From NCBI GenBank assembly GCA_963840855.1, contig CAWJBB010000032.1, forward strand, positions 1 through 62,252: a stretch of DNA of 62,252 bases, written 5' to 3'. The notes under the pieces are model-generated. The model saw only the letters and a program-made list of their open reading frames with translations. It ran no database searches and had not been told where the DNA came from. A program made the translations under genes and the position numbers. The DNA is from an uncultured delta proteobacterium (GTDB lineage Bacteria; Desulfobacterota; Binatia; UBA9968). Shown here in pieces: positions 15,946 to 57,764 of the stretch (position 1 is the first letter of the stretch; each line of letters opens with the position of its first letter).

Positions 15946-15961
15946 TGTTCAATATTAGACA
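15946..15961 (+). promoter_or_regulatory. palindromic Crp/Fnr-type box TGTTCAATATTAGACA
   Basis: member of the 10-copy motif; followed by GCGCAGCAT at conserved spacing. Confidence 0.75.
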
Positions 15962-16035
15962 GTAATTGCTGTCAAGTCAGCGCAGCATAATAATTCAAAC
16001 CCCCTGATGGCCGAATAGAGGAAATTAGAGGAAAT

Positions 16036-16410
16036 ATGAATTTAAATAAAGGATGGAAGATTCATCAAATTATCGTGGCACAGTCAGGTTGGAAAGCCGT
16101 TCATTGCCGGGAATCGGAAAATAGACAAATAGAGATTTCCAATCGGGCCGTAGTTTGCTGGGCGCTTGTCGAAGCCATCGACGAGAACGACACTGTGCGA
16201 ACAGAAGTGCGAGGGGTCGAGCAGAATTCAAACCATCTCGTGATTGTTGGGGATTTGATCAAGACGGATAAAATTGGGGAAGAGGGCGTAGATGGTAACC
16301 AGTATTTTCTTGGATACAATGATCCGGACGCGCACCAAGAGTCTGACTATTGGATCAAGCAAGCCAACCTGCGGATTGAGAGGGAACACGAAAAAATAGC
16401 GAAGCGGTGA
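16036..16410 (+). CDS. hypothetical protein
   Basis: GAGGA RBS; directly downstream of a motif box. Confidence 0.75.
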   Translation: MNLNKGWKIHQIIVAQSGWKAVHCRESENRQIEISNRAVVCWALVEAIDENDTVRTEVRGVEQNSNHLVIVGDLIKTDKIGEEGVDGNQYFLGYNDPDAHQESDYWIKQANLRIEREHEKIAKR

Positions 16411-16620
16411 GATCGACCGCCTTGTTTCGCTTCCATAGGTAGGTCACGCTAGGTTGTTGATCCTCACCGTGTCAATCGCATTCCTTTTTTGGGTGACTCA
16501 TTCACGTCACGTAACTTCGCAGGCTTCCGCTGGCCGTTCAACTCAAGCCGCGAAGCGGCCGATTTGCCATAGTGATTTCTGTAAGGGCATGATAGCCTGC
16601 AGCACAAAGGAGAAAGAAAA

Positions 16621-16908
16621 ATGCTTGAGGTGGGTCACCGATTGTTCGTGGGAATAAAAATTTCGACAAAATTGCAAAACGATTTGGACCGCCCGGCTCC
16701 CGGAACGGAGCATTATTTTAATGCTGACAGTGCAGACTATCTTCACGTCGTTACCGTGGGGGAGCAAAAGTTGATCGGAAGGTACGTGAAGGACGGCTTT
16801 CCGGCGTCGGATATGGATAACGTCAGCCGCAACGTCTGCAGCATCGTGAAGCTGATCACACGCGGCCACCGCATAGAAGAAGGTTCTGTCCATATCTACG
16901 CTGCTTGA
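16621..16908 (+). CDS. hypothetical protein
   Basis: AGGAG RBS, globular protein-like composition. Confidence 0.7.
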   Translation: MLEVGHRLFVGIKISTKLQNDLDRPAPGTEHYFNADSADYLHVVTVGEQKLIGRYVKDGFPASDMDNVSRNVCSIVKLITRGHRIEEGSVHIYAA

Positions 16909-17254
16909 GTTTTCAACGCTGGTGACCTGACCATAGCGGTTCTTTTCCCTCGTAAAGCTCGCGACGCTTCCCTTCCCCTGACTTTCAAGTTGTCAGCCGT
17001 TTGCCGAGTTCGGACGCAAGGCCGTTAGCATCGGTTGTCCTAGGCAAATGATTGATGGGGTATCTTTATCGTCTGCATCTGGTATACTCACGAGCAATGT
17101 AACAACTGAAACCCAACGTCCAAATAAAACACACTCGGTCTAATTTTTCCGAGTATTGGAGAGGCGGTTCCCAGGGTAACCGCCTCTTTGCGTTTATGGG
17201 CCGGAAAATGACTGGGAATCGCGAGGTGCGACTGCCAGCAAGGAGATTTTCCCT

Positions 17255-19544
17255 ATGGAGCCGAGCCTCCACCATTCCCGGATCAATCGGATTGCTTTTA
17301 TCGGCAACTATTTGCCACGACAGTGCGGTATCGCCACGTTCACCACCGACTTGTGTGAGGCCATTGCTGCAGAACACCCTGATACAACTTGCATCGCAGT
17401 GCCGGTCAACGACGTCGAAGAGGGTTACGCCTATCCGACTCGTGTGCGCTTCGAACTGACCGAAAAGGATCTTCAATCCTACCGGCGGGCGGCGGACTTT
17501 CTGAATATCAATAGCGTGGACCTCGTATGCCTGCAGTTCGAATACGGCATCTTCGGAGGACGGGCGGGCAGCCACATCCTGGCCCTGCTCCGCGATCTGC
17601 GCGTGCCCATTGTTACGACCCTGCACACTGTTTTGCGCGAACCCGACGCGCATCAACGTCGAGTTTTACAAGAAGTCGCGGCTCTATCGGACCGCTTGGT
17701 TGTCATGAGCAAGCGCGGCGTGGAATTTCTCGAGCAAGTCTATCATGTGGCGCCGGAGAAAATTGATTCGATTCCCCACGGTATCCCGGATATGCCTTTT
17801 GTCGATCCGAGTTTCCATAAAGACTTGTTTGGCGTCGAAGGCAAAGTCGTACTGCTTAGTTTTGGCCTATTGTCGGCGAACAAGGGAATCGAGAATGTCA
17901 TCGCTGCTCTCCCCGCCATCTTGGCCAAGCATCCCAACGTGGTGTACTTCATTGTTGGCGCGACCCATCCGCATGTTTTGAAACAGGATGGCGAAACTTA
18001 TCGGTTGTCACTGCAGTGGCTGGCTCAAGAGAAAGGCGTCGAAGGCCAGGTGATCTTTTACAACCGATTTGTCAGCGTGGAGGAACTCGTTGAGTTCATC
18101 GGCGCCGCGGATATTTACATCACGCCTTATCTGAATCCGGCGCAGATCGTTTCGGGTACGCTCGCTTATACCGTAGGGGCGGGTAAGGCGGTGATTTCGA
18201 CACCCTATTGGCATGCTGAAGAAATGCTGGACGACGGGCGAGGAGTGCTCGTGCCCTTCCGTGATCCGGCGGCGTTAGCGGATCAGGTGACCCGATTGCT
18301 GGATGACGAAGCGACTCGCCACGGGATGCGCAAGCGCGCTTATCTCTATGGGCGCGATATGATCTGGCCGCAAGTAGCGCGACGCTATATGGCGAGCTTT
18401 CGGCGCGCGCGATCCGAACGGCGGCACTTTACTCCTCCCGGTTTTGTCGTGAAACCGCTCGATAAACGTCCGGCCGAACTGCCCCCTCTGAAACTCGATC
18501 ACTTGCGGCGCATGACGGATGATACCGGTATGTTTCAACACGCCATTTTCACCGTGCCCAACTATCATGAGGGGTACACCATCGACGACAACGCCCGCGC
18601 CCTGACGGTCAGCACCCTCCTGGAAGAGCTCGGCAGCGAAGAGAGCGCGGATCTAACGTCACGCTATTTCGCCTTCGTCTGGTACGCCTTCAATGCGAAG
18701 ACCGGACGCTTCCGAAATTTCATGAGCTATCAGCGCAACTGGCTGGAGGAGAACGGCTCCGACGACAGTCATGGCCGCGCGTTGTGGGCGCTGGGCACCG
18801 TATTGGGCCACTCCAACACGCCGGCGCTCCAGAGTATGGCCGGCTGGGTATTCGAGAAGGCGTTGCCCGCCATTCTAGACACGACCAGCCCGCGAGCGTG
18901 GGCATTCGCGCTTATGGGTATCGACGAATACCTGCAGCGTTTTGCCGGTGATCGCAGAATCACTCTGGTCCGTGAGGTGTTGGCCGGACGGTTACTCGAC
19001 TTGTATGGCCAAAACCGGACAGACGAATGGCGCTGGTATGAAGAATCGCTAACCTATTGTAACGGCGCGCTGCCGCACGCGTTACTCATATGCGGCCAAC
19101 GCATACCCGACAATGAAATGATCGAAGCCGGACTGGAATCGCTTCAATGGCTGGCAGATCTGCAACGAGCCGAAACGAACGGCGGTCATTTTGTGCCTAT
19201 CGGTTCCAACGGTTTTTATCAACGCGGCGGTCAGCGTGCGCGCTTCGATCAGCAGCCGGTGGAGGCGCAAGCCATGGTCTCGTCCTGCCTCGCGGCGCAT
19301 CGCCTTACCGGTGATCAACGGTGGCACAAGGAAGCGCGGCGCGCCTTTGACTGGTTCCTCGGTCGCAACGACCTCAACCTGCCGATCTACGATCCGACAA
19401 CAGGCGGTTGTCGAGACGGCTTGCATCCCGACCGCCCCAACGAAAACCAGGGCGCAGAGTCTTCCCTCGCATTTCTCCAGGCGGTGTCTGGAACTGCGCT
19501 TGGCCGAGACCGCACTGGTGTCCGTGGAAACAGGAGCTCGATGA
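17255..19544 (+). CDS. GT4 glycosyltransferase with C-terminal (alpha/alpha)-barrel-like domain; extra T near 19487 fuses it to the next gene
   Basis: PRQCGIATF, EYGIFGG, TPYxNxxQxxSGTL; C-domain YTIDDNAR, FDQQP, NQGAES; natural end LELRLAE...GAR* lies in the +1 frame. Confidence 0.85.
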
Positions 19545-22602: not shown

Positions 22603-22618
22603 TGTCTAATATTGAACA
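22603..22618 (-). promoter_or_regulatory. Crp/Fnr-type box (TGTTCAATATTAGACA on minus strand)
   Basis: identical to the 15946 box, with GCGCAGCAT at the same spacing. Confidence 0.75.
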
Positions 22619-26123: not shown

Positions 26124-26139
26124 CGTCCACTATTAGACA
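26124..26139 (+). promoter_or_regulatory. Crp/Fnr-type box CGTCCACTATTAGACA
   Basis: motif match, upstream T-tract, GCGCATTTT at conserved spacing. Confidence 0.7.
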
Positions 26140-37373: not shown

Positions 37374-37389
37374 CGTCCAATATTGGACA
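37374..37389 (+). promoter_or_regulatory. Crp/Fnr-type box CGTCCAATATTGGACA upstream of nfeD-floA
   Basis: 14-bp perfect palindromic core; GGGTACGTT downstream. Confidence 0.8.
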
Positions 37390-40271: not shown

Positions 40272-40307
40272 CGGTCACGCGCGGTTTGTACCAAAATTAC
40301 TTAACGG

Positions 40308-40781: not shown

Positions 40782-41099
40782 GAGATCTACCTCCATAGAA
40801 TATGACCCAAAGATCTATTTAAGTGTGGACTTTATCGATTTGAAATGAAAGACCATCGCTGATAACTTTGATAGCTCCTGTTGCGGCGTACCGGTAGTTT
40901 GCGCCATTAGCGAGGAGGCTAGCTCACCGCAACCGATCACCGGGCCGATCCCGAGTAGACATGCCGCAGACGACGAGGTAGTCTGTGCCAACTCTTGAAC
41001 GGCGGAGGTGTAGAAGCTCATCAACAATCAACTGACCAAGCCCCCCACACGGTTATCATACTGCTGCTTTGGTCATCGCGGGTATCCAAAGGAAATACG

Positions 41100-41783: not shown

Positions 41784-41825
41784 GACTCCGCGCCGCGCCG
41801 CTAGCGCATGGTCATTTTTTAGATT

Positions 41826-41841
41826 CGTCCAATATTGGACA
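41826..41841 (+). promoter_or_regulatory. Crp/Fnr-type box CGTCCAATATTGGACA upstream of desaturase
   Basis: palindromic core; GGGTAGAGT -10 places the centre at about -41.5. Confidence 0.8.
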
Positions 41842-41999
41842 GTAATTCCAGCCACGTACGGGTAGAGTCGCGATATAATTGCGACAAGGCATAAGCACCC
41901 TGAGTTCGGAACGAACTTCTCTTCGGCATGTGGTTGAGCGTCGGAGTCAAATGGGCAGCACTTTCGCGACGATGGCGATCAATAACTAAATGATTAGGG

Positions 42000-43076: not shown

Positions 43077-43492
43077 TGCGTCTGTGAATGAATAGTCATC
43101 GCTCTAAGTTTAATTCCTTGCAGCATTGAAACATGGACCTATTAGGTCTATGCTTCAACTAGAAGACGATGACTCGCCGCCGGCGTTCCGGATACGAGTT
43201 CTGCAACGCCGGCAGTTTCTGCTTAAGTAACTGGATTGATCGACGCAGGTCGCAGAGACTCACAAGGGAGATCATCCCTCGGCCATCCCACGCTACCGGC
43301 CGCTACGATTTCACGTCCCAGAGAGAGCGTTAGTTAGAAGAGCGCATTCGTTTCGGGCGAACCAACGAGAGAACCTTCGCTGGTAACCCGCCCCATCCTT
43401 CAAAACGATTCGCTACCGTCGAGGCAGTGATTCTGTCCCGCAGCGGTTCCCTTACCGCGCGCTGCGTCCGTCGGAAACGAGAGGAGGCTTTT

Positions 43493-43999
43493 ATGTCGTT
43501 GATCAACCAGTTGCCGGAAACCGTGTTTACTACGAAGGTAGACGAACTGCTTAATTGGGGGCGAGCCTCTTCGCAGTGGTACATGCTCTTTGGCTTGGCC
43601 TGTTGCGCCATCGAATTGATGCAAACGGGAGGACCCCGGGCGGATATCGACCGCTTTGGCGCCGTACCCCGCGCTACCCCTCGTCAGTCCGACCTGATGA
43701 TCGTGGCGGGGACGCTGACTTATAAGATGGCCAAGCGGACCAAGCTCCTTTACGATCAAATGCCTGATCCGAAATATGTCATCTCGATGGGGAGCTGCGC
43801 CAACTGCGGGGGGCTTTTCCAGCTTGCCTACTCCGTTTGTAAAGGCGTCGACAAAATCATCCCAGTAGACGTTTACGTTCCCGGGTGTCCGCCTCGCCCG
43901 GAAGCTCTGACAGAAGGGCTTTTGCGGATCCAGGACAAGATCATGCGGGAGAAATGGCTGGTTAAGAATAGCAAACATGAACCGGTGTCTGCCGGCTAG
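43493..43999 (+). CDS. nuoB: NADH:quinone oxidoreductase subunit B, copy 1 (orphan)
   Basis: [28 protein letters not shown]; GAGGAGG RBS. Confidence 0.93.
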
Positions 44000-44017
44000 G
44001 CAAGCGGCGAATATCCA

Positions 44018-44098
44018 ATGATGGTTGGAGAAATTACCATCAGCGATCGCGCCGCGGAAAAGATCCAGGTACTGCCATTCACGACCATTGAGCCTTAA
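44018..44098 (+). pseudogene. N-terminal stub of an IscA/HesB-like protein
   Basis: MMVGEITISDRAAEKIQVL then early stop. Confidence 0.5.
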
Positions 44099-44143
44099 CG
44101 CAAATAGAATTCTCCAGGTAGAAAGAAAGAACCTGACATACTC

Positions 44144-46255
44144 ATGAAAATATCACTCAGTCGCTTTTTGAATCGACGATTTCCGCGCCTATCCACCCTG
44201 CGGATCGACAAAATACCGCCGAAAGCCGGTCCCGTCGAGCTTGTGAAGCAATTTCTTGCCAACCTACGAAGCAACTATGACGCTAAAAAGAAAACCAAGC
44301 TGCCGATGGAAAAGAATCAGCGGCGGTTCTCTATTGGGTATTTCATATTGGCTTTTTCGATCATGCTAATAGTCCAGAACTATTTCTTCAGTTCCCATGT
44401 TGAGATTATCAGCTACAGCCAATTTAAATCCCTAGTCAAAAAAAGCCTCATCACTGATCTTGCCATCGGCGAGACGACCATTCAGGGGGATATGAAGGGT
44501 GAGGGCGTTAAAGAGATTTTCCCGGCGGAGAAATTAAAGAGCATTCCTCAGGATGTAAGGGAAGGAAAAAAATCTTATCCCTTCTTAGCGGTGCGAGTGG
44601 AGGACCCTGGCCTGACTGCTGAACTTGAACAGGCAAAAGTACCTTTTAAAGGAGAGGTGACCAGTACTTGGCTGCCCACCGTCTTATCCTGGGTGGTTCC
44701 AGCGGCCTTATTTTTTCTAATCTGGAGCTATTTTACCAAGAAGATGGGATCAGGGAGCAGCGGCTTAATGCAGATCGGCAAGAGCAAGGCGAAGGTCTAT
44801 ATTGAGAAAGCAACGGGAGTAACCTTTGCCGACGTCGCGGGAATCGACGAAGCGGAGGAGGAAGTCGCCGAAGTTGTCGGGTTTCTAAAGGATCCGGATA
44901 AATATCAAAGATTGGGCGGTCATATTCCTAAAGGTGTTCTGATCATTGGGCCGCCGGGTACGGGAAAGACCCTGCTCGCGCGCGCCGTGGCTGGCGAGGC
45001 CGGCGTTCCTTTCTTCAGCTTGTCAGGTTCTGACTTCGTCGAAATGTTTGTCGGAGTGGGTGCGGCTCGGGTCAGGGATCTATTTCTCCAAGCGGTGAAG
45101 CATGCCCCCAGTATCATATTCATCGATGAGCTCGATGCCCTAGGAAAGGCTCGGGGAGTGAGCATGCTGACCGGCAACGACGAGCGGGAACAAACCCTCA
45201 ATCAACTATTGGCCGAGATGGATGGATTCGATCCGAATCAAGGGGTTATCATCATGGCCGCCACCAACCGGCCAGAAATCCTGGACGCCGCGCTCCTCCG
45301 TCCCGGCCGATTTGATCGGCAAATCCTGGTGGATCGTCCCGACATAAAGGGGCGTACCAAAATTCTCGAATTGCATGCGAAGAAGGTAAAACTCTCTCCT
45401 GATCTGGACCTCGCTGTCGTGGCAGCGAAAACTCCAGGCTTTGTTGGTGCCGATCTCGCTAACATTGTTAATGAAGCCGCCCTGTTGGCAGCGCGTCAGG
45501 ACAAAGAGTCCATCGAGATGGCGGAATTTGACGAGGCGATCGAACGGGTGGTGGCGGGGCTACAAAAGAAGAGCCACGTCATCAATCCGAAGGAGAAGAG
45601 AATCGTCGCCTATCACGAGTCCGGTCACGCGCTCGTGGCAGAGCTCGTGCCTGGGGCTGATCCCGTTTCCAAGATTTCCATTATTCCAAGGGGAATTGCC
45701 GCCCTGGGGTACACAACCCAGCTGCCGACGGAAGATCGCTATCTCATGACACGTTCCGAATTGCTCGCGCGCATCTGCGTCCTTCTGGGAGGAAGAGTCG
45801 CGGAGGAGATTGTCCTCGGCGACATAACGACCGGTGCGCAGAACGATCTCCAGCGCGCCACTGAGATTGCCCGGACCATGATTACTCAATTCGGGATGAG
45901 TGAAAAGCTCGGCCTGGCGTCTCTCGAAGGACCGCGGCGCTCCATGTACCTTATGGTGCCCACTCAGAGCCCCAAAGAGTACAGCGAGGAAACCGCTCGG
46001 TTCATCGATGAAGAGGTAAAACAATTGTTGTCAGGAGCGCATACCAAAGCCCGCGACATCCTGGTCGCGCACCGCTCGGCCCTCGAGGAATTGGCGAAGC
46101 TGCTTCTGGAAAAAGAGGTTGTCGACCGGCCCGCGCTGCAAGCGATTCTAAAAGTGCGGAGCATCGACAGCGTCAAGGAAAAAAAGAAATCCGCGAACAC
46201 ACTCGAGACTGGGAGTTACAAGAGCAGTATCGAACGCGAAATGCCGGAGGTGTAA
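44144..46255 (+). CDS. ftsH: ATP-dependent zinc metalloprotease FtsH, copy 1 (start may be 44306)
   Basis: 2 [30 protein letters not shown]. Confidence 0.95.
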
Positions 46256-46310
46256 AGGACTGATTGCGCGTCGATCGCGCATGATCGGTAGAATTTAGGA
46301 GGGAAAAACC

Positions 46311-46661
46311 ATGGAGAACGGAAAGGATCGCTTGGTAGAATCGCTGAAGTTTGACGAGCGAGCGAATGAAGACGGCTATTTTGCCGTGAAAGAACACGAA
46401 CTGATTGAGGGGCTCAAGACCGAATTTCAGAAGGATGAAGCAGACCGCCGGGAAGCGCGGATGGCGAGCTGTCCGAAGTGTTCAGGAAAGTTCGAGAAGT
46501 ACAGGTTTATGGGATTCGTTTTAGAGCGCTGTGAAAACTGCGAAGGGATCTGGCTGAAGAAAGGCGAGCTCGCCGGGATTTTGCGCCAGCAGGCGCGTGG
46601 TCCGCTGGGAGTCTTTCTGGATCGATGCTTTGCCAAAGCTGAAGTAGCCAAGAAGAGTTAG
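46311..46661 (+). CDS. zinc-ribbon (zf-TFIIB-like) protein, copy 1
   Basis: EDGYF N-terminus; CPKC...CENCEGIWL..GEL; AGGAGG RBS. Confidence 0.85.
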   Translation: MENGKDRLVESLKFDERANEDGYFAVKEHELIEGLKTEFQKDEADRREARMASCPKCSGKFEKYRFMGFVLERCENCEGIWLKKGELAGILRQQARGPLGVFLDRCFAKAEVAKKS

Positions 46662-46797
46662 ACCGAGCCGTACCGGTTACTGAATCCCGTGTAACCCCCG
46701 GAAAAATAGATAGTTAGCCCTGCTCCCGCAATACCAACCTACGCGTGTTTAGAGCGGCGGCGCCTGCGCGCAGCTGCTCAATCCTTTTTTTGGAAAT

Positions 46798-46813
46798 CGT
46801 TCAATACTGGACA
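46798..46813 (+). promoter_or_regulatory. Crp/Fnr-type box CGTTCAATACTGGACA
   Basis: motif match with upstream T-tract. Confidence 0.65.
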
Positions 46814-46939
46814 GAAATTTCCATCCGAGTCAGGTTAAGTCTGCAGATGACGAAGCCAAACCGGATCCTCGTCATCTGGACGGTCTTCCAAAAGGGGAAC
46901 TTCGGATCTTTTCTGTTTTCTTAGGTGAAGGGAGTCGAC

Positions 46940-47107
46940 ATGAAAGTAAATCGCAATGACCGCAGGATCAACTCCACCCTGGGAGAGCTGATAGCGGCTA
47001 TCAGCGAGGTAGCCTTTGAGAATGCCGCCGACACCAAAGAAGCCTACACTCTCGCTAGTTTGGTTTTGGTGGAGATTTCGAAAAAGGCATCTTTCAGAAG
47101 TGAAATC
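46940..47107 (+). pseudogene. copy 1 of small hypothetical gene, 3' end lost at the duplication junction
   Basis: matches 53777-53944, then diverges; reading frame runs antisense into the next gene. Confidence 0.7.
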
Positions 47108-47145
47108 AGCTGGAACGAGAGCTCACGATACGGGCCTCCTAACGA

Positions 47146-47619
47146 TTACGCAAGACGCAATTGCTTAAGCGATGCACGGGCAGGTCCCCCGCTTATATCC
47201 GGAATTATATTCAGTTCCAGTGTGGTCACGCCGTCCAGCTCAACAGAAAAATCTTCGACTTCGCTGGTCGTGTCGGGAGGGCTGAAGTTATATTGCTGGC
47301 GCACGATCTCGCGGTAAGACTGCCCCGTGTCTGCCGACCAGCGCAGCACAAACTGTTGGGTTCGCTCCCGGTCATTCTCCTGAAAGACTAAATTCATCCG
47401 TTTGATCCTCTGTGGCTCGTGAAATAACAGGCGGATCGTCTGCTGTCCAGGTCGTTCCGCCCGCCAGCCCGATCCGCCCGCCGGTATCAATGCCGACTCG
47501 ATCGGGTGCGCCGGGTCCTCGGAGGTCACTTCGACATCGGCGAGAGCTTCCAGATTCAACCAATGTCGATCCGCGGGCAAGATATCTTGAGATCCATGAT
47601 TGATGATCCGCTTACGCAT
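47146..47619 (-). CDS. galactose-binding-like domain protein, copy 2
   Basis: paralog of 40308-40781. Confidence 0.75.
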   Translation of the reverse strand: MRKRIINHGSQDILPADRHWLNLEALADVEVTSEDPAHPIESALIPAGGSGWRAERPGQQTIRLLFHEPQRIKRMNLVFQENDRERTQQFVLRWSADTGQSYREIVRQQYNFSPPDTTSEVEDFSVELDGVTTLELNIIPDISGGPARASLKQLRLA

Positions 47620-47936
47620 GAGATTTACCTCCATAGAATATAACCTAGAGACTGATTTAAGTGTGGACTTTATCGATTTGAAATGAAAGACCATCGCTGA
47701 TAACTTTGATAGCTCCTGTTGCGGCGTACCGGTAGTTTGCGCCATTAGCGAGGAGGCTAGCTCACCGCAACCGATCACCGGGCCGATCCTGCCTGGACAT
47801 GCCGCAGACGACGAGGTAGTCTGTTCCAACTCTTAAAAGGCGGAGGTGTAGAGGCTCATCAACAATTAACTGATCAAGCCCCCAGTGGGTTATCAGACTG
47901 CTGCTTTGATCATCGCGGGCATCCAAAGGAAACACG

Positions 47937-48620
47937 ATGACGATTCAACAGACTCCTCAAGCCGACCAGTTCAAAGTCCAATTGCGCAATTCGCTGCAGC
48001 GGGAGACCATGAATTCTCACGCCATCAAGATTGCGCGGCACGCCAACGTCTACATTTGCGGCGATCAAGACGAGATGGTCTACTTCATCGAGAGCGGACA
48101 GATCAAGCTGCTCATGCTCTCGTCCGAAGGCAAAGAGTGCCTCCTTGCCATCCATAGCGCGGGAGATATTTTCGGTGAATTGTGTTTATCCGGGTTAGGC
48201 GCACGCCTGGAAACGGCGACGGCGATGAAAGCAACGACCGTGAAACAGATACCCTGTGGCCAGTTTTTCGAGCGTCTTAGCCGCGACTCGCTGTTCGAGG
48301 GCTTCGTGCGCTACCTGGCCGTGCGCATCGCCGACCAACAGCAGGTCATCGCCAACCTGGTGACGGTGGACAGCGAACAGCGACTGGGAAAAACGCTGTT
48401 GCAGTTGGCCCGCACAATGGGCAAGAAAGACCCGCGCAGCATTCGCATCGAGCTGAAGATTACCCACGAAGAATTGTCCGAGATGGTGGGAACGACGCGG
48501 CCGCGGATCAGCCTGTTTATGCAAAGATTTCACAACCTTGGGCTGATAGAAACGAATAGAGATCGCTTCCTCGTCATCAAAGAAAACAAGCTCACCCAAT
48601 ACCTCGCGCAGATCGCCTAG
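47937..48620 (+). CDS. Crp/Fnr family transcriptional regulator, copy 2
   Basis: near-identical to 41100-41783. Confidence 0.93.
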   Translation: MTIQQTPQADQFKVQLRNSLQRETMNSHAIKIARHANVYICGDQDEMVYFIESGQIKLLMLSSEGKECLLAIHSAGDIFGELCLSGLGARLETATAMKATTVKQIPCGQFFERLSRDSLFEGFVRYLAVRIADQQQVIANLVTVDSEQRLGKTLLQLARTMGKKDPRSIRIELKITHEELSEMVGTTRPRISLFMQRFHNLGLIETNRDRFLVIKENKLTQYLAQIA

Positions 48621-48662
48621 GACTCCGCGCCGCTCCGCTAGCGCATGGTCATTTTTTAAATT

Positions 48663-48678
48663 CGTCCAATATTGGACA
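48663..48678 (+). promoter_or_regulatory. Crp/Fnr-type box CGTCCAATATTGGACA
   Basis: duplicate of the 41826 box. Confidence 0.8.
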
Positions 48679-48837
48679 GTAATTCCAGCCACGTCACGGG
48701 TAGAGTCGCGATATAATTGCGACAAGGCATAAGCACCCTGAGTTCGGAACGAACTTCTCTTCGGCATGTGGTTGAGCGTCGGAGTCAATTGGGCAGCACT
48801 TTCGCGACGATGGCGATCAATAACTAAATGATTAGGG

Positions 48838-49914
48838 ATGTCTCGGCCAGAACAGGCTCTTGACAGCAGGGGGTGCGCAGTGTTCGTTCATGAAGATTCG
48901 GCCAATTTTAAAACAACCAAACCGGCTTGGTATCTGACCACCGCCAAGTACCGGCAAACGAATCTCCGCAAATCGCTCTGGCAACTCCTCGATACGTTTG
49001 TTCCTTATTGCGTCCTTTGGGCGGCGATGATTTATACCTTTCAACAGGGGATTCCCTATTGGATCACTCTCGCGCTGGCGGTGGTGGCGGGCGGTATACT
49101 GGTACGTATTTTCATCCTGTTCCACGATTGCTGTCATGGTTCCTTCTTTGCGTCGCGCCGGGCAAACGTGATCCTGGGCTATGTTACAGGTATTCTTACT
49201 TTTACGCCGTTTGAACACTGGAGGTCTGCCCACAGCTTGCATCATGCCGCGGCGGGAGATCTGGACCGTCGGGGAGTCGGCGCTGTCTGGACGATGACGA
49301 CAGACGAGTATCTGGCAGCGCCCCGGCTAAAACGACTCAGGTATCGGATCTATCGGAATCCCTTCGTAATGTTCGGTCCGGGTCCCGCACTTGTGTTTTT
49401 GATCTTGCACCGATTTTCCAGCAAAGGCGCGGGAAAGAGAGAGCGCTATAGCGTGGCTTTCACCAACTTCGCGCTCTCGTTCGTCGCCGGAGTGGCGACC
49501 TGGACGATCGGTTTTCAGACGTATCTATTGATTCAGTTGCCCGTCATTCTGATTGCCGGCAGTCTCGGGCTGTGGCTGTTCTATATCCAGCATCAATTTG
49601 AGAGCGTATATTGGGCACGCCGCGAATCTTGGGAGCCACTTAGAGTAGCGCTGGAAGGCAGTTCTTATTTCAAGTTGCCGAAAATACTACAGTGGTTCAG
49701 CGGCAACATCGGCCTACATCACATTCACCACGTTCGACCGAGTATTCCCAATTACAACTTGCAACGATGTCACGATGAAATCCCGGTTTTCCAGGCGGTC
49801 AAAGCCATCACAATCCGGACAAGTGTCAGGTCTCTCCGACTGGGCCTGTGCGATGAAAAAAACAAGAAACTGGTTAGTTTTCGCTCTTTGACGGCTCTTG
49901 ATGCGAGAAACTGA
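48838..49914 (+). CDS. membrane fatty acid desaturase, copy 2
   Basis: three His boxes. Confidence 0.92.
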   Translation: MSRPEQALDSRGCAVFVHEDSANFKTTKPAWYLTTAKYRQTNLRKSLWQLLDTFVPYCVLWAAMIYTFQQGIPYWITLALAVVAGGILVRIFILFHDCCHGSFFASRRANVILGYVTGILTFTPFEHWRSAHSLHHAAAGDLDRRGVGAVWTMTTDEYLAAPRLKRLRYRIYRNPFVMFGPGPALVFLILHRFSSKGAGKRERYSVAFTNFALSFVAGVATWTIGFQTYLLIQLPVILIAGSLGLWLFYIQHQFESVYWARRESWEPLRVALEGSSYFKLPKILQWFSGNIGLHHIHHVRPSIPNYNLQRCHDEIPVFQAVKAITIRTSVRSLRLGLCDEKNKKLVSFRSLTALDARN

Positions 49915-50330
49915 TGCGTCTGTGAATGAATAGTCATCGCTCTAAGTTTAATTCCTTGCAGCATTGAAACATGGACCTATTAGGTCTATGCTTCAACCAG
50001 AAGACGATGACTCGCCGCCGGCGTTGCAGAGACGAGTTCTGCAAGCCGGCAGTCTCTGCTTAGGTAACTGGATCGATCGACGCAGGTCGCAGAGACTCGC
50101 AAGGGAGATCATCCCTCGGCCATCCCCACGCTACCGGCCGCTACGATTTCACGTCCCAGAGAGAGCGTTAGCTAGAAGAGCGCATTCGTTTCGGGCGAAC
50201 CAACGAGAGAACCTTCGCTGGTAACCCGCCCCATCCTTCAAAACGATTCGCTGCCGTCGAGGCAGTGATTCTGTCCCGCAGCGGTTCCCTTGCCACGCGC
50301 TGCGTCCGTCGGAAACGAGAGGAGGCTTTT

Positions 50331-50837
50331 ATGTCGTTGATCAACCAGTTGCCGGAAACCGTGTTTACTACAAAGGTAGACGAACTGCTTAATTGGGGGC
50401 GAGCCTCTTCGCAGTGGTACATGCTTTTTGGCTTGGCCTGTTGCGCCATCGAATTGATGCAAACGGGAGGACCCCGGGCGGATATCGACCGCTTTGGCGC
50501 CGTACCCCGCGCTACCCCTCGTCAGTCCGACCTGATGATCGTGGCGGGGACGCTGACTTATAAGATGGCCAAGCGGACCAAGCTCCTTTACGATCAAATG
50601 CCCGATCCGAAATATGTCATCTCGATGGGGAGCTGCGCCAACTGCGGGGGGCTTTTTCAGCTTGCCTACTCCGTTTGTAAAGGCGTCGACAAAATCATCC
50701 CGGTAGACGTTTACGTTCCCGGGTGTCCGCCCCGCCCGGAAGCTCTGACAGAAGGGCTTTTGCGGATCCAGGACAAGATCATGCGGGAGAAATGGCTGGT
50801 TAAGAATAGCAAACATGAGCCGGTGTCTGCAGGCTAG
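50331..50837 (+). CDS. nuoB: NADH:quinone oxidoreductase subunit B, copy 2 (orphan)
   Basis: same motifs as copy 1. Confidence 0.93.
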
Positions 50838-50981
50838 GCAAGCGGCGAATATCCAATGATGGTTGGAGAAATTACCATCAGCGATCGCGCCGCGGAAAAG
50901 ATCCAGGTACTGCCATTCACGACCATTGAGCCTTAACGCAAATAGAATTCTCCAGGTAGAAAGAAAGAACCTGACATACTC

Positions 50982-53093
50982 ATGAAAATATCACTCAGTC
51001 GCTTTTTGAATCGACGATTTCCGCGCCTATCCACCCTGCGGATCGACAAAATACCGCCGAAAGCCGGTCCCGTCGAGCTTGTGAAGCAATTTCTTGCCAA
51101 CCTACGAAGCAACTATGACGCTAAAAAGAAAACCAAGCTGCCGATGGAAAAGAATCAGCGGCGGTTCTCTATTGGGTATTTCATATTGGCTTTTTCAATC
51201 ATGCTAATAGTCCAGAACTATTTCTTCAGTTCCCATGTCGAGATCATCAGCTACAGCCAATTTAAATCCCTAGTCAAAAAGAGCCTCATCACTGATCTTG
51301 CAATCGGCGAGACGACCATTCAGGGGGATATGAAGGGTGAGGGAGTTAAAGAGATTTTCACGGCGGAGAAATTAAAGAGTATTCCTCAAGATGTAAGGGA
51401 AGGAAAAAAATCTTATCCCTTCTTAGCGGTGCGAGTGGAGGACCCTGGCCTGACTGCTGAACTTGAACAGGCAAAAGTATCTTTTAAAGGAGAGGTGACC
51501 AGTACTTGGCTGCCCACCGTCTTATCCTGGGTGATTCCAGCGGCCCTATTTTTTCTGATCTGGAGCTATTTTACCAAGAAGATGGGATCAGGGAGCAGCG
51601 GCTTAATGCAGATCGGCAAGAGCAAGGCGAAGGTCTATATCGAGAAAGCAACGGGAGTAACCTTTGCCGACGTCGCGGGAATCGACGAAGCGGAGGAGGA
51701 AGTCGCCGAAGTTGTCGGGTTTCTAAAGGATCCGGATAAATATCAAAGATTGGGCGGTCATATTCCTAAAGGTGTCCTGATCATTGGGCCGCCGGGTACA
51801 GGAAAGACCTTGCTCGCGCGCGCCGTGGCTGGCGAGGCCGGCGTTCCTTTCTTCAGCTTGTCAGGTTCTGACTTCGTCGAAATGTTTGTCGGAGTGGGTG
51901 CGGCTCGGGTCAGGGATCTATTTCTCCAAGCGGTGAAGCATGCCCCCAGTATCATATTCATCGATGAGCTCGATGCCTTAGGAAAGGCTCGGGGAGTGAG
52001 CATGCTGACCGGCAACGACGAGCGGGAACAAACCCTCAATCAGCTATTGGCCGAGATGGATGGATTCGATCCGAACCAAGGGGTTATCATCATGGCCGCC
52101 ACCAACCGGCCAGAAATCCTGGACGCCGCGCTCCTCCGTCCCGGCCGATTTGATCGGCAAATCCTGGTGGATCGTCCCGACATAAAGGGGCGTACCAAAA
52201 TTCTCGAATTGCATGCGAAGAAAGTAAAACTCTCTCCTGATCTGGACCTCGCTGTCGTGGCAGCGAAAACTCCAGGCTTTGTTGGTGCCGATCTCGCTAA
52301 CATTGTTAATGAAGCCGCCCTGTTGGCGGCGCGTCAAGACAAAGAGTCCATTGAGATGGCGGAATTTGACGAGGCGATCGAACGGGTGGTGGCGGGGCTA
52401 CAAAAGAAGAGCCACGTCATCAATCCGAAGGAGAAGAGAATCGTCGCCTATCACGAGTCCGGTCACGCGCTCGTGGCAGAGCTCGTGCCTGGGGCTGATC
52501 CCGTTTCCAAGATTTCCATTATTCCAAGGGGAATTGCCGCCCTGGGTTACACAACCCAGCTGCCGACGGAAGAGCGCTATCTCATGACACGTTCCGAATT
52601 GCTCGCGCGCATCTGCGTCCTTCTGGGAGGAAGAGTCGCGGAGGAGATTGTCCTCGGCGACATAACGACCGGCGCGCAGAACGATCTCCAGCGCGCCACT
52701 GAGATTGCCCGGACCATGATTACTCAATTCGGGATGAGTGAAAAGCTCGGCCTGGCGTCTCTCGAAGGACCGCGGCGCTCCATGTACCTTATGGTGCCCA
52801 CTCAGAGCCCCAAAGAGTACAGCGAGGAAACCGCTCGGTTCATCGATGAAGAGGTAAAACAATTGTTGTCAGGAGCGCATACCAAAGCCCGCGACATCCT
52901 GGTCGCGCACCGCTCGGCCCTCGAGGAATTGGCGAAGCTGCTTCTGGAAAAAGAGGTTGTCGACCGGCCCGCGCTGCAAGCGATTCTAAAAGTGCGGAGC
53001 ATCGACAGCGTCAAGGAAAAAAAGAAATCCGCGAACACACTCGAGACTGGGAGTTACAAGAGCAGTATCGAACGCGAAATGCCGGAGGTGTAA
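50982..53093 (+). CDS. ftsH: ATP-dependent zinc metalloprotease FtsH, copy 2
   Basis: same motifs as copy 1. Confidence 0.95.
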
Positions 53094-53148
53094 AGGACTG
53101 ATTGCGCGTCGATCGCGGATGATCGGTAGAATTTAGGAGGGAAAAACC

Positions 53149-53499
53149 ATGGAGAACGGAAAGGATCGCTTGGTAGAATCGCTGAAGTTTGACGAGCGAG
53201 CGAATGAAGACGGCTATTTTGCCGTGAAAGAACACGAACTGATTGAGGGGCTCAAGACCGAATTTCAGAAGGATGAAGCAGACCGCCGGGAAGCGCGGAT
53301 GGCGAGCTGTCCGAAGTGTTCAGGAAAGTTCGAGAAGTACAGGTTTATGGGATTCGTTTTAGAGCGCTGTGAAAACTGCGAAGGGATCTGGCTTAAGAAA
53401 GGCGAGCTCGCCGGGATTTTGCGCCAGCAGGCGCGTGGTCCGCTGGGAGTCTTTCTGGATCGATGCTTTGCCAAAGCTGAAGTAGCCAAGAAGAGTTAG
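53149..53499 (+). CDS. zinc-ribbon (zf-TFIIB-like) protein, copy 2
   Basis: protein identical to copy 1. Confidence 0.85.
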   Translation: MENGKDRLVESLKFDERANEDGYFAVKEHELIEGLKTEFQKDEADRREARMASCPKCSGKFEKYRFMGFVLERCENCEGIWLKKGELAGILRQQARGPLGVFLDRCFAKAEVAKKS

Positions 53500-53635
53500 A
53501 CCGAGCCGTACCGGTTACTGAATCCCGTGTAACCCCCGGAAAAATAGATAGTTAGCCCTGCTCCCGCAATACCAACCTACGCGTGTTTAGAGCGGCGGCG
53601 CCTGCGCGCAGCTGCTCAATCCTTTTTTTGGAAAT

Positions 53636-53651
53636 CGTTCAATACTAGACA
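53636..53651 (+). promoter_or_regulatory. Crp/Fnr-type box CGTTCAATACTAGACA
   Basis: duplicate of the 46798 box. Confidence 0.65.
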
Positions 53652-53776
53652 GAAATTCCATCCGAGTCAGGTTAAGTCTGCAGATGACGAAGGCAAACCG
53701 GATCCTCGTCATCTGGACGGTCTTCCAAAAGGGGAACTTCGGATCTTTTCTGTTTTCTTAGGTGAAGGGAGTCGAC

Positions 53777-53983
53777 ATGAAAGTAAATCGCAATGACCGC
53801 AGGATCAACTCCACCCTGGGAGAGCTGATAGCGGCTATCAGCGAGGTCGCCTTTGAGAATGCCGCTGACACCAAAGAAGCCTACACTCTCGCTAGTTTGG
53901 TTTTGGTGGAGATTTTGAAAAAGGCATCTTTCAGAAGTGAAATCGTTGACCGGCGCTTTTCCATGAGTAAATACCCGCATTAA
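53777..53983 (+). CDS. small hypothetical protein (TLGELIAAISEVAF)
   Basis: GGGAG RBS; intact copy. Confidence 0.75.
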   Translation: MKVNRNDRRINSTLGELIAAISEVAFENAADTKEAYTLASLVLVEILKKASFRSEIVDRRFSMSKYPH

Positions 53984-54332: not shown

Positions 54333-54470
54333 TGCCTATGCTGAATATGGCCAGAGATATCGGTGGAAGAGTTCCTTTCGCAGGAGTCCTGGCCTCACGA
54401 GATTTCTTTTCTGATTGGTGTTTTGTTAGGCGGTAATCTTTAACTCGTCAGCGTATCGTATGGAGAAGCT

Positions 54471-56290: not shown

Positions 56291-56306
56291 TGTCCAATAT
56301 TGGACA
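56291..56306 (+). promoter_or_regulatory. perfect palindrome TGTCCAATATTGGACA (Crp/Fnr-type box)
   Basis: perfect 16-bp inverted repeat; TATCGT downstream. Confidence 0.82.
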
Positions 56307-56890: not shown

Positions 56891-57040
56891 ATGAGCCTGT
56901 TGTTATTGATCGTCTTAGTTCTGTTCCTGTTCGGAGGTCTGCCCCGCTGGGGTTATCACTCCTATGGCTATGCTCCGTCGGGGGTTGTGGGCGTGGTGCT
57001 GCTGGTCATTGTTGCTCTGCTTCTGACCGGCCGACTCTAA
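56891..57040 (+). CDS. DUF3309-like small membrane protein (not in ORF track)
   Basis: GGLPRWGYHSYGYAPSG...LLTGRL; GGAGG RBS. Confidence 0.85.
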   Translation: MSLLLLIVLVLFLFGGLPRWGYHSYGYAPSGVVGVVLLVIVALLLTGRL

Positions 57041-57121
57041 AGGATGCCCAATGGCGCGGTGACGATCCCCACACGATCAGTTGGCAATAAACCCTATCGA
57101 AGGGGGAGGTAGGAAAATACC

Positions 57122-57346
57122 ATGATGAAACAAATCGAGATCCATGGACAGCGAGTCGAACTGTACAGTCTCGACAAAGGGCGCACTTGGTCGAGCAGCC
57201 CGCAATCGATCGTTGCTTATGGACAAAGGGAAAAGATGTTGCGTCTGGAATTACAAAAGAGGTTTGCACGCATAGACGCGATGCAGGACCCCCATCCGAA
57301 TAATATCACTGAACTTGAGATCCCAATGACCCTCGTGAGTCGGTGA
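57122..57346 (+). CDS. hypothetical protein
   Basis: GGAGG RBS; LYSLDKGRTWSSSP. Confidence 0.65.
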   Translation: MMKQIEIHGQRVELYSLDKGRTWSSSPQSIVAYGQREKMLRLELQKRFARIDAMQDPHPNNITELEIPMTLVSR

Positions 57347-57551
57347 AGACGACCTAGGGACGTATCTTGATCCGCTACACGGAGGGATAGCCGGAGCCGC
57401 CTTAGATTTAAATTCGGCTATTTCCCCGTGTCTGGAGCCAGTCGTTTCTTGAAGCCGAGTTGATCTGATGGGTGGGAGTTCCGTTTTTCAAGCGCTCGCT
57501 TATGGAACGCGAAAAGTCAGCTTCATCAACTACTTCGGTTATCTTGGCCAA

Positions 57552-57669
57552 ACACGCGGCTTGCCACACGGTTCACGGTTTCAGCCAAGACGTTGAGCGG
57601 GCCGGGGAAAAGACTCGGGACGCTGCGAACGCCGTGAAGAAAAAATTGTCGGCCGATCGAAGAAATTAA
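57552..57669 (+). pseudogene. entericidin remnant lacking its signal peptide
   Basis: ACHTVHGFSQDVERAGEKTRDAANAVKKKL, homologous to 54183-54332. Confidence 0.7.
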
Positions 57670-57748
57670 ACGCCCGAAGCCTTTAACTTGGGCCGGCTGG
57701 AGCTCTCATCGCGTGAATGCGGACCTGACGATATTTCTTTGCAAAAAA

Positions 57749-57764
57749 TGTCCAAAATTAGACG
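57749..57764 (+). promoter_or_regulatory. Crp/Fnr-type box TGTCCAAAATTAGACG
   Basis: motif match; GCGTACCGT at conserved spacing. Confidence 0.7.

Follow-up and report, generated by a model that had tools for sequence, protein, structure and literature searches.

Very Probable Binding Sites of a Crp-Family Activator That Appears to Move with Its Promoters between Distant Bacterial Groups

Introduction

Binatia and Acidobacteriota are abundant in soil and mostly uncultured, and literature searches did not find a described general stress regulator for either group. A contig from an uncultured member of the Binatia carries a short near-palindrome that recurs between its genes, which raises the question of which protein reads these boxes and what the genes behind them do. 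A first-pass annotation of the 62,252-nt stretch of DNA analyzed here (the window) assigned the boxes to Crp paralogs encoded nearby. At class II promoters of E. coli cAMP-CRP, such as galP1, a TGTGA-N6-TCACA site is centered at −41.5. Literature searches found no description of the regulator-box system considered below.

Results

Ten Boxes in the Window

The 16-base palindrome (YGTYCAATATTRGACA type) occurs exactly ten times in the window and weaker copies are absent. Pattern and matrix scans returned every coordinate given by the first-pass annotation, including the minus-strand placement of the site at 22603. The strict pattern YGTYCAATATTRGACA finds 6 distinct sites and has 0 matches in 100 shuffles, while TGTCCAATATTGGACA with ≤3 mismatches finds 9 window sites (shuffles: mean 0.11, maximum 1). 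The tenth site, 53636, has 4 mismatches to TGTCCAATATTGGACA, yet scores 21.1 bits on the core matrix. Core-matrix scores are bimodal, with ten sites at ≥19.7 bits and the range from 8 to 19.7 bits empty. The boxes and their surroundings are as follows, with bit scores from the extended matrix described below.

15733..15809, + strand: tRNA-Pro(GGG), left edge of the box-bearing segment
15946..15961, + strand: box 1, TGTTCAATATTAGACA, 56.5 bits; −10-like CAGCAT at 15983-15988
16036-16410: first gene behind box 1, 124 aa, no family
20868-21380: CarD
22603..22618, − strand: box 2, 57.6 bits on the minus strand; −10-like CAGCAT at 22581-22576
22511-22224 (95 aa) and 22209-21862 (small membrane-like protein): box 2 genes
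26124..26139, + strand: box 3, 60.0 bits; −10-like CATTTT at 26161-26166
26254-26577: box 3 gene, 107 aa, ABM-like only below threshold
37374..37389, + strand: box 4; −10 TACGTT at 37412-37417
37508-38935 (nfeD), 38938-39912 (floA) and 39924-40271: box 4 operon
40302..53977: tandem duplication, two 6838-bp units (40302-47139 and 47140-53977, 96-99% identity) with crp, desaturase, a 192-aa unknown protein, FtsH, Zn-ribbon protein and box 6/8
41100..41783, + strand: crp1, Crp/Fnr-family regulator, 227 aa
41826..41841, + strand: box 5, 42 nt past the crp1 stop; −10 TAGAGT at 41863-41868
42000-43076: fatty-acid desaturase, box 5 gene
46311-46661: Zn-ribbon protein
46798..46813, + strand: box 6; −10 TAAGTC/TTAAGT around 46835-46841
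46940-47317: box 6 gene, 125 aa, no family
47937..48620, + strand: crp2, 99% identical to crp1, via the duplication
48663..48678, + strand: box 7, duplicate of box 5, 42 nt past the crp2 stop; desaturase at 48838-49914
53636..53651, + strand: box 8, duplicate of box 6, 54.6 bits, 4 mismatches to a perfect palindrome; downstream ORF truncated at the end of the duplication
54417..54432, + strand: degenerate-box promoter; T-tract, GTAA and GTCAGCGTATCGT kept, palindrome decayed to GGTGTTTTGTTAGGCG
54471-55145: M48 peptidase, behind the 54417 promoter
56291..56306, + strand: box 9, perfect palindrome, 61.9 bits; −10 TATCGT at 56327-56332
56404-56490 (28 aa), 56546-56707, 56891-57040 (DUF3309) and 57122-57346: tiny membrane proteins behind box 9
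57749..57764, + strand: box 10; −10 TACCGT at 57786-57791
57897-59123 (GT4 glycosyltransferase), then 59291-59944 (Fe/Mn superoxide dismutase): box 10 genes
60606..61286, + strand: crp3, 83-85% identical paralog; no box after its stop

Two pairs of boxes (41826/48663 and 46798/53636) had been attributed to duplication, and they do lie in the 96-99% identical tandem copies. The intergenic location proposed for the boxes also holds: all ten are outside Pfam-supported genes, and some are overlapped only by short ORFs without family hits. All ten have a T-tract just before the palindrome, as described, and in the core-matrix scan all ten lie after the tRNA-Pro, with none on its far (left) side, again as described. 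A −10-like hexamer beginning 36-38 nt past the first box base, claimed for most sites, was found at 10/10. Six sites carry a TAnnnT-type hexamer (the last base of TAAGTC, at 46798 and 53636, is C), two carry CAGCAT and one CATTTT.

The Box at the Core of a Predicted Directional Promoter

The promoter element is larger than the first-pass annotation saw. In a logo of 103 non-redundant sites (out of 126), the box forms the core of a predicted directional promoter of ∼60 nt, in which a T-tract comes first, then the palindrome, then CAGnAA as a partial −35 and, after a 17-nt spacer, TAnnnT. The conserved columns are a T-tract at −13 to −7, G16, A18/A19 and T37-A38-N3-T42. The palindrome, whose claimed 5-6-5 geometry is evident in the logo, is by far the most informative portion, with G1, T2, T10 and C14 invariant in 103/103 sites. 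The G16, A18-20 and upstream-T columns are inflated because the rule used to orient sites favored them; a separate pattern search with its control still recovers them.

The TAnnnT hexamer starts at offset 37 in 54/103 sites; another 13 have it one position to either side (36 or 38), with 0-4 sites at other offsets. Because the box center lies 29.5 nt before the predicted −10 in these 54 sites (±1 nt in 13 more), it falls at −41.5 if the hexamer spans −12 to −7. Measured against the predicted −10, this is the class II position, at the fixed distance that had been proposed. The spacer is itself partly conserved, with CC at 26-27 and GAGTCAGC at 28-35, a feature that the class II model does not account for.

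The position of the box also bears on the direction of regulation. The same Crp could bind as a repressor or dual regulator, a box over −49 to −34 blocking polymerase at promoters otherwise driven by the UP-like T-tract and the −10. The T-tract is strong, and T-tract, GTAA and a good TATCGT all persist in the degenerate promoter at 54417, as though flanks alone sufficed; this promoter's 24.4 bits on the extended matrix come only from the flanks. With flanks kept and palindrome ruined, such flanks may function without the regulator. However, the −35 region is only CAGnAA, and a repressor needs no one-base precision relative to the −10, whereas the exact class II distance is kept in 54/103 sites; Crp-family sites at −41.5 are activating in studied cases. 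Repression is considered unlikely.

An alternative (ECF-like) sigma factor might read the GnAAY ... CGTA elements, the palindrome being accessory or a likeness left from cassette copying. AAC/CGT-type ECF elements do look similar to GnAAY (positions 16-20) and (G)CgTA (34-38), part of the spacer is conserved, and one box-driven gene elsewhere encodes a zf-HC2 anti-sigma-type domain. This reading is nevertheless very unlikely: ECF promoters typically have a gap of 16-17 nt, longer than the 14 nt between AAY and CGT here; TAnnnT, placed 17 nt from a G..A partial −35, suits a housekeeping-type sigma factor; and the palindrome is by far the most informative portion. Spacer details differ between two lineage groups while the architecture is common to both, which argues against mere copying. 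More generally, the predicted promoters do not point to control by a dedicated alternative sigma factor, given their TAnnnT −10 and 17-nt spacer and the lack of an RpoS above the curated cut-off of 378.7 bits (best score 294.9 bits; the genome is 94% complete).

Many boxes lie shortly past a stop codon, so they could be structural or recombination elements, such as terminator hairpins after crp or repeats, with no regulatory role. A perfect 8+8 palindrome with an AT center and a T-tract before rather than after it would hardly work as an intrinsic terminator on the coding strand, however, and fixed distances to the −10 and to the downstream gene start are a promoter property. In an Rfam search only the tRNA matched. 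A purely structural or recombination role is highly improbable.

Distribution in the Genome

A genome-wide motif search, proposed in the first-pass annotation, used an extended matrix trained on 94 sites, all from other genomes. Across the 7.1-Mb genome it found 24 promoters >15 bits, of which this contig holds 11, and only 70 positions score >0 bits. Pattern matches with ≤2 mismatches have promoter flanks in 11/11 cases, and 9/35 matches with ≤3 mismatches fall in this 62-kb contig, 0.9% of the genome. The expected restriction to non-coding DNA is also seen outside the window, where 11/13 matrix matches are not covered by any ORF >106 aa. All four genome copies of this Crp type sit in two box-rich contigs.

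The Crp Regulator

The three local Crp paralogs that had been reported are present (crp1, crp2 and crp3). Each has an N-terminal cyclic-nucleotide-binding-type β-barrel (PF00027, E 4e-12 to 2e-12) and a C-terminal Crp-type helix-turn-helix (PF13545, E ∼1e-13 to 4e-14) that aligns to the GlxR HTH. By domain content, they are members of the CRP/FNR superfamily, in an unnamed Crp/Fnr subfamily.

They match neither cAMP-CRP proper nor FNR. Against the equivalog for cAMP-CRP proper (NCBIfam NF008732) the score is 63.8 bits, with a cut-off of 266. The helix here is R188-P-R-I-S-L and the box TGTCC-N6-GGACA, not the R-E-x-x-x-R of cAMP-CRP with its TGTGA-N6-TCACA. In the phosphate-binding stretch (GELcL..gaRlETA) the Arg is invariant and the next Ser/Thr position is Leu. 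FNR (NF008365) gives 54.4 bits against a cut-off of 228, and the box differs from TTGAT-N4-ATCAA. No N-terminal Cys cluster was found; Cys residues are at 41, 68, 83 and 107, with only C68 invariant.

The nearest solved structures in the PDB are GlxR and M. tuberculosis CRP (E ∼1e-20). In the GlxR alignment an Arg is retained opposite the RE of RETVNK and the Glu is replaced by Pro. All 77 distinct orthologs share the recognition helix TTRPR(I/V)SxFMQRF, an invariant helix that appears to match an invariant box.

Linkage of Regulator and Box

Genomes with an orthologous Crp were suggested as a check, and 40 related genomes were compared. Crp was found in 13, the box pattern in 14, both in 12 and neither in 25; boxes thus occur in 12/13 genomes with Crp and 2/27 without, a table that overstates the support because related genomes are not independent. 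The 12 include the unpublished genome G165, without which the count is 11/12. The reversed-pattern control gave 0 matches in all genomes of this set. One exception, G172 (Crp 76% identical, genome 100% complete), has Crp and zero pattern matches. Conversely, boxes were present and Crp was not found in three genomes: G151 (83% complete), G167 (86% complete) and G199. In a reciprocal test, 3/4 genomes picked by the box alone have Crp (60-73% identity), and in two of them the box follows the crp stop.

This placement is common. A same-strand box promoter lies ≤120 nt past the stop in 37/82 crp copies, and the same box also follows the crp stop in relatives of ∼50% identity, whose helix reads TTRPRIT. 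Upstream of crp1, crp2 and crp3 the core-matrix scan placed no box, and only 3/81 crp copies elsewhere have one there.

Another dimeric DNA-binding protein, from the cluster or the host, might bind the box, with Crp a passenger of the same island. Co-occurrence cannot separate co-travelling genes, and the cluster does hold other possible nucleic-acid binders, the Zn-ribbon protein (46311-46661) and CarD (20868-21380). We consider this quite unlikely. To our knowledge CarD is not a sequence-specific palindrome binder. A 16-bp, 5-6-5 site has the format used by Crp/Fnr proteins, its TGT always retains the GT, as CRP sites do, and the Arg identified in the alignment is conserved. In addition, the tight crp-box linkage persists down to ∼50-60% protein identity in Caldilineaceae- and Pyrinomonadaceae-labelled MAGs, with the other cluster genes not required. 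The assignment of the box to Crp is supported by comparative evidence, namely co-occurrence, the reciprocal test, linkage after the stop and the invariant helix.

Genes behind the Boxes

Genes directly behind boxes encode CsbD, BON, YtxH, YflT, DUF3309, DUF5670, SOD, FtsH, desaturase, NfeD-FloA and CarD; 50/84 downstream ORFs scanned have no Pfam family. This looks like a general-stress set. The targets named at first pass, nfeD-floA, the desaturase, GT4 and small unknown proteins, are indeed behind boxes. For the ABM protein the box 3 gene is present, but its ABM identity comes from a sub-threshold Pfam match (E 0.0066).

Probable Lateral Spread

Among sampled genomes of the phylum, this Crp was found in 0/150, as compared with 13/24 in the family and 0/16 in the rest of the order. 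The Crp-box pair recurs in Acidobacteriota and in Caldilineaceae-labelled MAGs. Between this genome and two Acidobacteriota-type genomes, Crp is 80% identical and RpoB only 55%, which points to horizontal spread. The box segment is not syntenic with the same-genus genome G152, where the DNA beyond the tRNA-Pro is unrelated. Rather than a chromosomal regulon confined to this species, it is probably a stress cluster that spreads laterally.

Discussion

Judged from comparative sequence analysis, the boxes are very probably the binding sites of an unstudied Crp-family activator that moves with its promoters between distant bacterial groups. The mechanism that we favor, and regard as probable, is class II activation of a stress-protection set from a local Crp dimer site, with regulator and promoters forming a laterally spread unit. 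Each box would be bound by a dimer of a locally encoded Crp/Fnr-family regulator (crp1/2/3) and would lie over a sigma-70-type promoter from about −49 to −34; the predicted promoter has CAGnAA as a partial −35 and, beyond a 17-nt spacer, TAnnnT. From there the regulator would contact RNA polymerase and activate rather than repress, with the α C-terminal domains presumably on the T-tract just upstream. Within the regulon, desaturase, FtsH, M48 and NfeD-FloA would act in membrane fluidity and quality control, the rest of the stress-protection set comprising tiny membrane proteins (DUF3309, unnamed peptides), BON/CsbD-type proteins, SOD, sugar-modifying enzymes and CarD. Regulator and promoters would have spread as one unit among uncultured soil and sediment lineages.

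The predicted system resembles E. coli CRP in its PF00027 + PF13545 regulator and its 16-bp 5-6-5 palindrome with invariant GT...AC. The class II likeness extends to a center 29.5 nt before the −10, a weak −35 and AT-rich DNA upstream where the α-CTD would sit. In contrast, the half-site is TGTCC rather than TGTGA, the helix R-P-R-I-S-L rather than R-E-T-V-G-R, the regulon concerns stress protection rather than carbon catabolism, and there are several paralogs per genome. C. glutamicum GlxR and M. tuberculosis CRP (4cyd, 4byy, 3d0s, 3i54) are the best PDB matches (E ∼1e-20 to 1e-18, residues 27-216) and share the domain order, with only distant similarity. Unlike the Crp here, they keep an RE..N/K helix and a TGTGA-type box, and each acts as a single global regulator in cultured Actinobacteria.

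In Thermus thermophilus, the CRP/FNR protein SdrP activates stress genes in stationary phase from class II positions, independently of an effector. It is similar as a Crp-family activator with a stress/stationary-phase regulon rather than a catabolic one, but its sequence relation is weak (2zcw, which we take to be SdrP, matched at E 7e-7 under a generic title) and its box differs. We do not know of SdrP being laterally mobile or multi-copy. The regulons of SigB (Bacillus), RpoS (Proteobacteria) and EcfG (Alphaproteobacteria) share CsbD, YtxH, YflT, BON/OsmY-type proteins, SOD and tiny membrane proteins with the present set, which is predicted to depend on an activator at sigma-70-type promoters and not on a dedicated sigma factor.

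More tentatively, and with the balance somewhat against it, Crp and the ∼60-nt module (T-tract, box, partial −35, conserved spacer, −10) might form a portable, self-contained stress/dormancy regulon. It would be mobile between phyla of uncultured bacteria from soil (Binatia-type, Acidobacteriota, Caldilineaceae), gain genes simply by placement of the module before them, and serve as a general stress response replacing a dedicated sigma factor.

The finding offers a testable regulatory code of one regulator family, one 16-bp site and one promoter geometry. It ties together about two dozen promoters per genome, many before tiny unannotated membrane proteins, and makes co-responding genes predictable from sequence alone, for example in drying/rewetting metatranscriptomes. 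Synthetic DNA opens regulation studies in organisms that cannot be grown. The contrast in identity between Crp and RpoB suggests that a regulator and its promoters can spread jointly as a unit.

Distribution of the Box in the Window and in the Genome

The 16-bp palindrome of TGTCC-N6-GGACA type (the box; copies numbered 1–10 from 15946 to 57749) was recovered by a core matrix at all ten positions reported in the first-pass annotation, and nowhere else in the window. All ten sites scored at least 19.7 bits, and the range between 8 and 19.7 bits was empty, which makes ten an exact count. The perfect palindrome TGTCCAATATTGGACA, allowed up to three mismatches, matched 9 window sites, compared with 0.11 expected; the tenth site, 53636, has four mismatches and is the duplicate of 46798. 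The stricter pattern YGTYCAATATTRGACA matched 6 distinct sites and gave no match in 100 shuffles. The annotated orientation of the site at 22603 (minus strand) was reproduced in the matrix scan, and two box pairs indeed stem from a tandem duplication of a 6838-bp unit (40302–47139 and 47140–53977, 96%–99% identity). In line with the proposed intergenic placement, no box lies inside a Pfam-supported gene of the window, and, as also proposed, none precedes the tRNA:

15733–15809, tRNA-Pro; all ten boxes lie to its right

In the whole 7.1-Mb assembly, 35 matches with up to three mismatches were found, 9 of them in the window contig; scrambled palindromes of equal composition gave 5–91 matches at this threshold. 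The promoter flanks described below accompany 11 of 11 assembly matches with up to two mismatches. A matrix trained on 94 sites, all from other genomes, yielded 24 distinct matches above 15 bits on both strands of the 7.1 Mb, with only 70 positions scoring above 0. Eleven of the 24 fall in the contig of the window (the ten boxes and the promoter at 54417), three or four in a second contig of the genome, C33, and the remainder are singletons. Outside the window, 11 of 13 matches have no covering open reading frame (ORF) longer than 106 aa, and the two exceptions rank among the five lowest scoring of the 24. The additional match in the window is either what remains of a decayed site or a form of the promoter module that does not depend on the regulator:

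54417–54470, promoter built in the same way (T-tract, GTAA, GTCAGCGTATCGT) with a degenerate palindrome, GGTGTTTTGTTAGGCG, directly before an M48 peptidase gene

The Box Is the Core of a Directional Promoter Module

To describe the flanks, 126 sites were gathered (117 from 76 loci of other genomes and 9 from the window), of which 103 are non-redundant. In these sites, the box forms the core of a directional module of ∼60 nt.

Elements of the module in the logo of 103 sites. Offset 0 is the first base of the box. Sites were oriented by a rule that relied on G16, A18–20, and upstream T content, and these columns are therefore inflated.
−13 to −7: T-tract
−6 to −4: CAA
0 to 15: palindrome; G1, T2, T10, and C14 in 103/103
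16 and 18–19: G16 and A18–A19
26–27: CC
28–35: GAGTCAGC, partially conserved
37–42: T37-A38-N3-T42

A 30-nt pattern built from those columns had no match when reversed in 41 genomes. Of the 103 sites, 54 have a TAnnnT hexamer starting at offset 37, and another 13 have one starting at 36 or 38; any other offset is used 0–4 times. A start at offset 37 puts the center of the box 29.5 nt ahead of the first base of the −10 element; the center would lie at −41.5 if the predicted −10 hexamer spans −12 to −7. The fixed class II distance claimed earlier is thereby borne out relative to the predicted −10. At positions 14–19 the module has CAGnAA, which partially matches TTGACA and is separated from the −10 by 17 nt. 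This predicted layout matches class II activator-dependent promoters used by a housekeeping-type sigma factor. Sites from loci of Binatia type (63) and of Acidobacteriota type (31) share a common architecture and differ in details of the spacer, which argues for constraint and not recent copying. Readings of the module as an ECF-type promoter or as a terminator were judged unlikely.

The Crp Regulator and Its Recognition Helix

The three local paralogs of the unnamed Crp/Fnr-subfamily regulator (Crp) are present as annotated, and the only other copy in the genome is broken:

41100–41783, crp1
47937–48620, crp2
60606–61286, crp3
C33:15072–15816, broken fourth crp in two pieces with one internal TGA; a degenerate box, TGTTCAGCATTAGGCA, comes 51 nt after it

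The local paralogs are 99% and 83%–85% identical, and all three have cNMP-binding and Crp-HTH domains. Their scores lie below the curated NCBIfam equivalog cutoffs for CRP (63.8 versus 266 bits), NtcA (58.3 versus 245), and FNR (54.4 versus 228). Judged by sequence, the regulator is a member of the CRP/FNR superfamily outside CRP, FNR, NtcA, and every other named equivalog. The family is large (4588 clusters at 90% identity with E of 1e-20 or better), and the sole label of these clusters is Crp/Fnr family.

Among solved structures, GlxR and M. tuberculosis CRP come closest (E about 1e-20), and the structure-match alignment sets TRPRISLFM opposite SRETVNKAL of GlxR. In CRP, an arginine contacts the G of TGT, and a glutamate together with a later basic residue reads the GA of TGTGA. 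Relative to GlxR, the aligned arginine is kept and both the glutamate and the later basic residue are replaced, changes that fit a predicted shift of the half-site from TGTGA to TGTCC. All 77 distinct orthologs share the helix TTRPR(I/V)SxFMQRF and Cys68, and Cys83 is nearly invariant among them. In the wider clade around the family, the helix reads TTR[PST]R[IV]..F.

Linkage between the Regulator and the Box

Among forty related genomes, Crp was found in 13, the box pattern in 14, both in 12, and neither in 25; since the genomes are kin, this table is suggestive and is not a statistical test. The 12 include one unpublished genome (G165); when it is left out, 11 of 12 genomes with Crp have the box pattern. 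One genome encodes a Crp of 76% identity with no pattern match (G172), and two, 83% and 86% complete (G151 and G167), have boxes with no Crp found.

In a collection of 185,579 species genomes, the strict 30-nt pattern matched 85 stretches. All 80 listed titles (80/80) were metagenome-assembled genomes (MAGs), labeled as Binatia, delta-/Deltaproteobacteria, Syntrophobacter(aceae), Thermodesulfobacteriota, Acidobacteriota (Blastocatellia, Pyrinomonadaceae), and Caldilineaceae. In the reciprocal test, three of four genomes picked from the pattern list irrespective of Crp encode a Crp of 60%–73% identity, and in two of these three a box follows the crp stop codon. More broadly, a box promoter on the same strand lies within 120 nt past the stop in 37 of 82 full-length crp copies with enough flank. 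Only 3 of 81 copies have one ahead of crp, so autoregulation is not the rule; none was found upstream of any of the three copies in the window. Together, the co-occurrence, the reciprocal test, and the linkage of crp and box support the earlier reading of the boxes as predicted sites of the local Crp paralogs.

In relatives of ∼50% identity with the helix TTRPRIT, TGTCCAATATTGGACA is still found after the stop. Among relatives of a clade member of 56% identity, the box is unchanged at two loci (L182 and L184), degenerate at L183, and absent at L181; no clearly different box that would pair with the helix changes was seen at these four loci. Plasmid-borne relatives were rejected as carriers of the regulon: they are at most 44% identical, belong to Streptomyces/Kitasatospora, and the one inspected lies in a polyketide cluster.

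An alignment of crp upstream regions (L001–L072) contains patchy conserved blocks near the start codon, e.g., TGACCAAGCC ... TCATCGTGGGC; crp may have its own promoter or leader here. DNA ahead of crp3 (60264–60729) occurs at >90% identity in RNA-library contigs from three studies, some of which skip 60431–60552. Contigs from four RNA libraries, at 90%–99% identity, cover 25–28 of 30 bins of 54000–62000; being assembled, they are blind to starts, strand, and level, and DNA carry-over is possible.

Genes behind the Boxes

Genes directly downstream of boxes in the window.
Proteins of 124, 95, and 107 aa with no family
nfeD-floA
Fatty-acid desaturase, twice
Protein of 125 aa without assigned family
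Row of tiny membrane proteins, among them a DUF3309 protein and one peptide of 28 aa
GT4 glycosyltransferase, then Fe/Mn superoxide dismutase

Of the box-linked genes named in the first-pass annotation, nfeD-floA, desaturase, GT4, and small unknown proteins are among these; the ABM protein, the 107-aa product, matches that family only below threshold (E 0.0066). CsbD, BON, an RRM protein, and a hydrolase are among the products encoded behind boxes elsewhere in the genome.

Several further features of the region were noted. The duplicated unit (40302–53977) carries crp, desaturase, a 192-aa unknown protein (minus strand), FtsH, and a Zn-ribbon (PF13453) protein, and its second copy truncates the ORF downstream of box 8. 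A hairpin, GATGACGA ... TCGTCATC, lies at 46850–46925, just past the predicted start after box 6 and ahead of the 125-aa ORF. A 1075-aa fusion of a GT4 glycosyltransferase and a GH130 mannoside phosphorylase (17255–20482), a phosphoglucomutase/phosphomannomutase (24067–25752), and a second GT4 (57897–59123), the only one of the three with its own box, could produce a protective sugar compound. The stretch 27061–36464 contains no box; it holds four full and one partial PF04392 (ABC_sub_bind) binding-protein genes mixed with unknown ORFs, including a 549-aa ORF (30635–32284) opposed by a 469-aa ORF on the other strand. A CarD paralog is encoded within the cluster (20868–21380), and CarD is predicted from box position to be directly box driven in three other genomes (L063, L069, and L075). 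The regulon may include this polymerase-stabilizing factor, which might be related to the conserved spacer beside the −10.

Across genomes, the downstream gene was taken, by a crude rule, as the longest ORF starting 25–400 nt past each oriented box. This gave 106 ORFs, of which 84 were scanned against Pfam (E 1e-5); those dropped were 9 window ORFs, scanned elsewhere, and 13 that were duplicates, very short, or inside crp. Families were assigned to 34 of the 84; the other 50, mostly small, have none.

Pfam families among the 34 ORFs.
HATPase kinases: 4
CarD, Crp: 3 each
Desaturase, GGDEF, DUF5670, YGGT: 2 each
FtsH, SOD, BON, CsbD, YtxH, YflT, DUF3309, PGM: 1 each
PLD, LapA, MlaE, radical SAM, E1 dehydrogenase, FecR/DUF6600, zf-HC2, Ysc84: 1 each

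The set resembles general-stress regulons under SigB, RpoS, or EcfG; in contrast to those, the control element here is a predicted activator site. In the source genome, 94% complete, no protein exceeded the curated cutoff for RpoS (best 294.9 versus 378.7 bits).

Probable Lateral Spread and Cluster Borders

Crp was found in 13 of 24 genomes in the family; the other 16 genomes of the order yielded none, nor did 150 sampled across the phylum. Two genomes with an RpoB only 55% identical to that of the source genome nevertheless carry Crp copies at 80% identity. In a closed 9.5-Mb Acidobacteriota chromosome, 8 of 10 pattern matches lie within 36 kb around the Crp genes. One MAG titled Limnocylindrales (L036/G194) has an RpoB 89% identical to that of the source genome; titles are therefore treated as labels only, and the cross-phylum claim rests on RpoB.

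A genome of the same genus (G152) retains the tRNA-Pro flank. Its 40 kb past the tRNA has nothing in common with 15826–62252 of the window and no box promoter, and its own Crp and boxes are found on a different contig. No integrase, transposase, or conjugation family was detected among the 49 + 30 + 10 window ORFs scanned, and no second copy of the tRNA-Pro 3′ end (an att-like repeat) in the assembly; both absences speak against an ordinary mobile element. Beyond the tRNA, GC content drops only slightly, and the contig ends at 62252, inside the cluster.

Relation to Known Systems

In its working mode, the system would be like cAMP-CRP at class II promoters. Closest in function are presumably the stress-responsive Crp-family activators such as SdrP of Thermus, and among described boxes, the TGTC-type half-site of CooA may be the most similar. 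In the literature listings and term-matched passages searched, neither the box nor a Crp stress regulon in these lineages was found described. Passages with matching terms in PMC8510549 and PMC3590769 lack the motif; TGTCC strings do occur in the matching passages of PMC4344238, as PpsR sites. The evidence supports the prediction that Crp and its boxes form a regulatory system of a well-known kind. Its added interest lies in the probable lateral sharing of such a predicted stress regulon among abundant uncultured soil bacteria.
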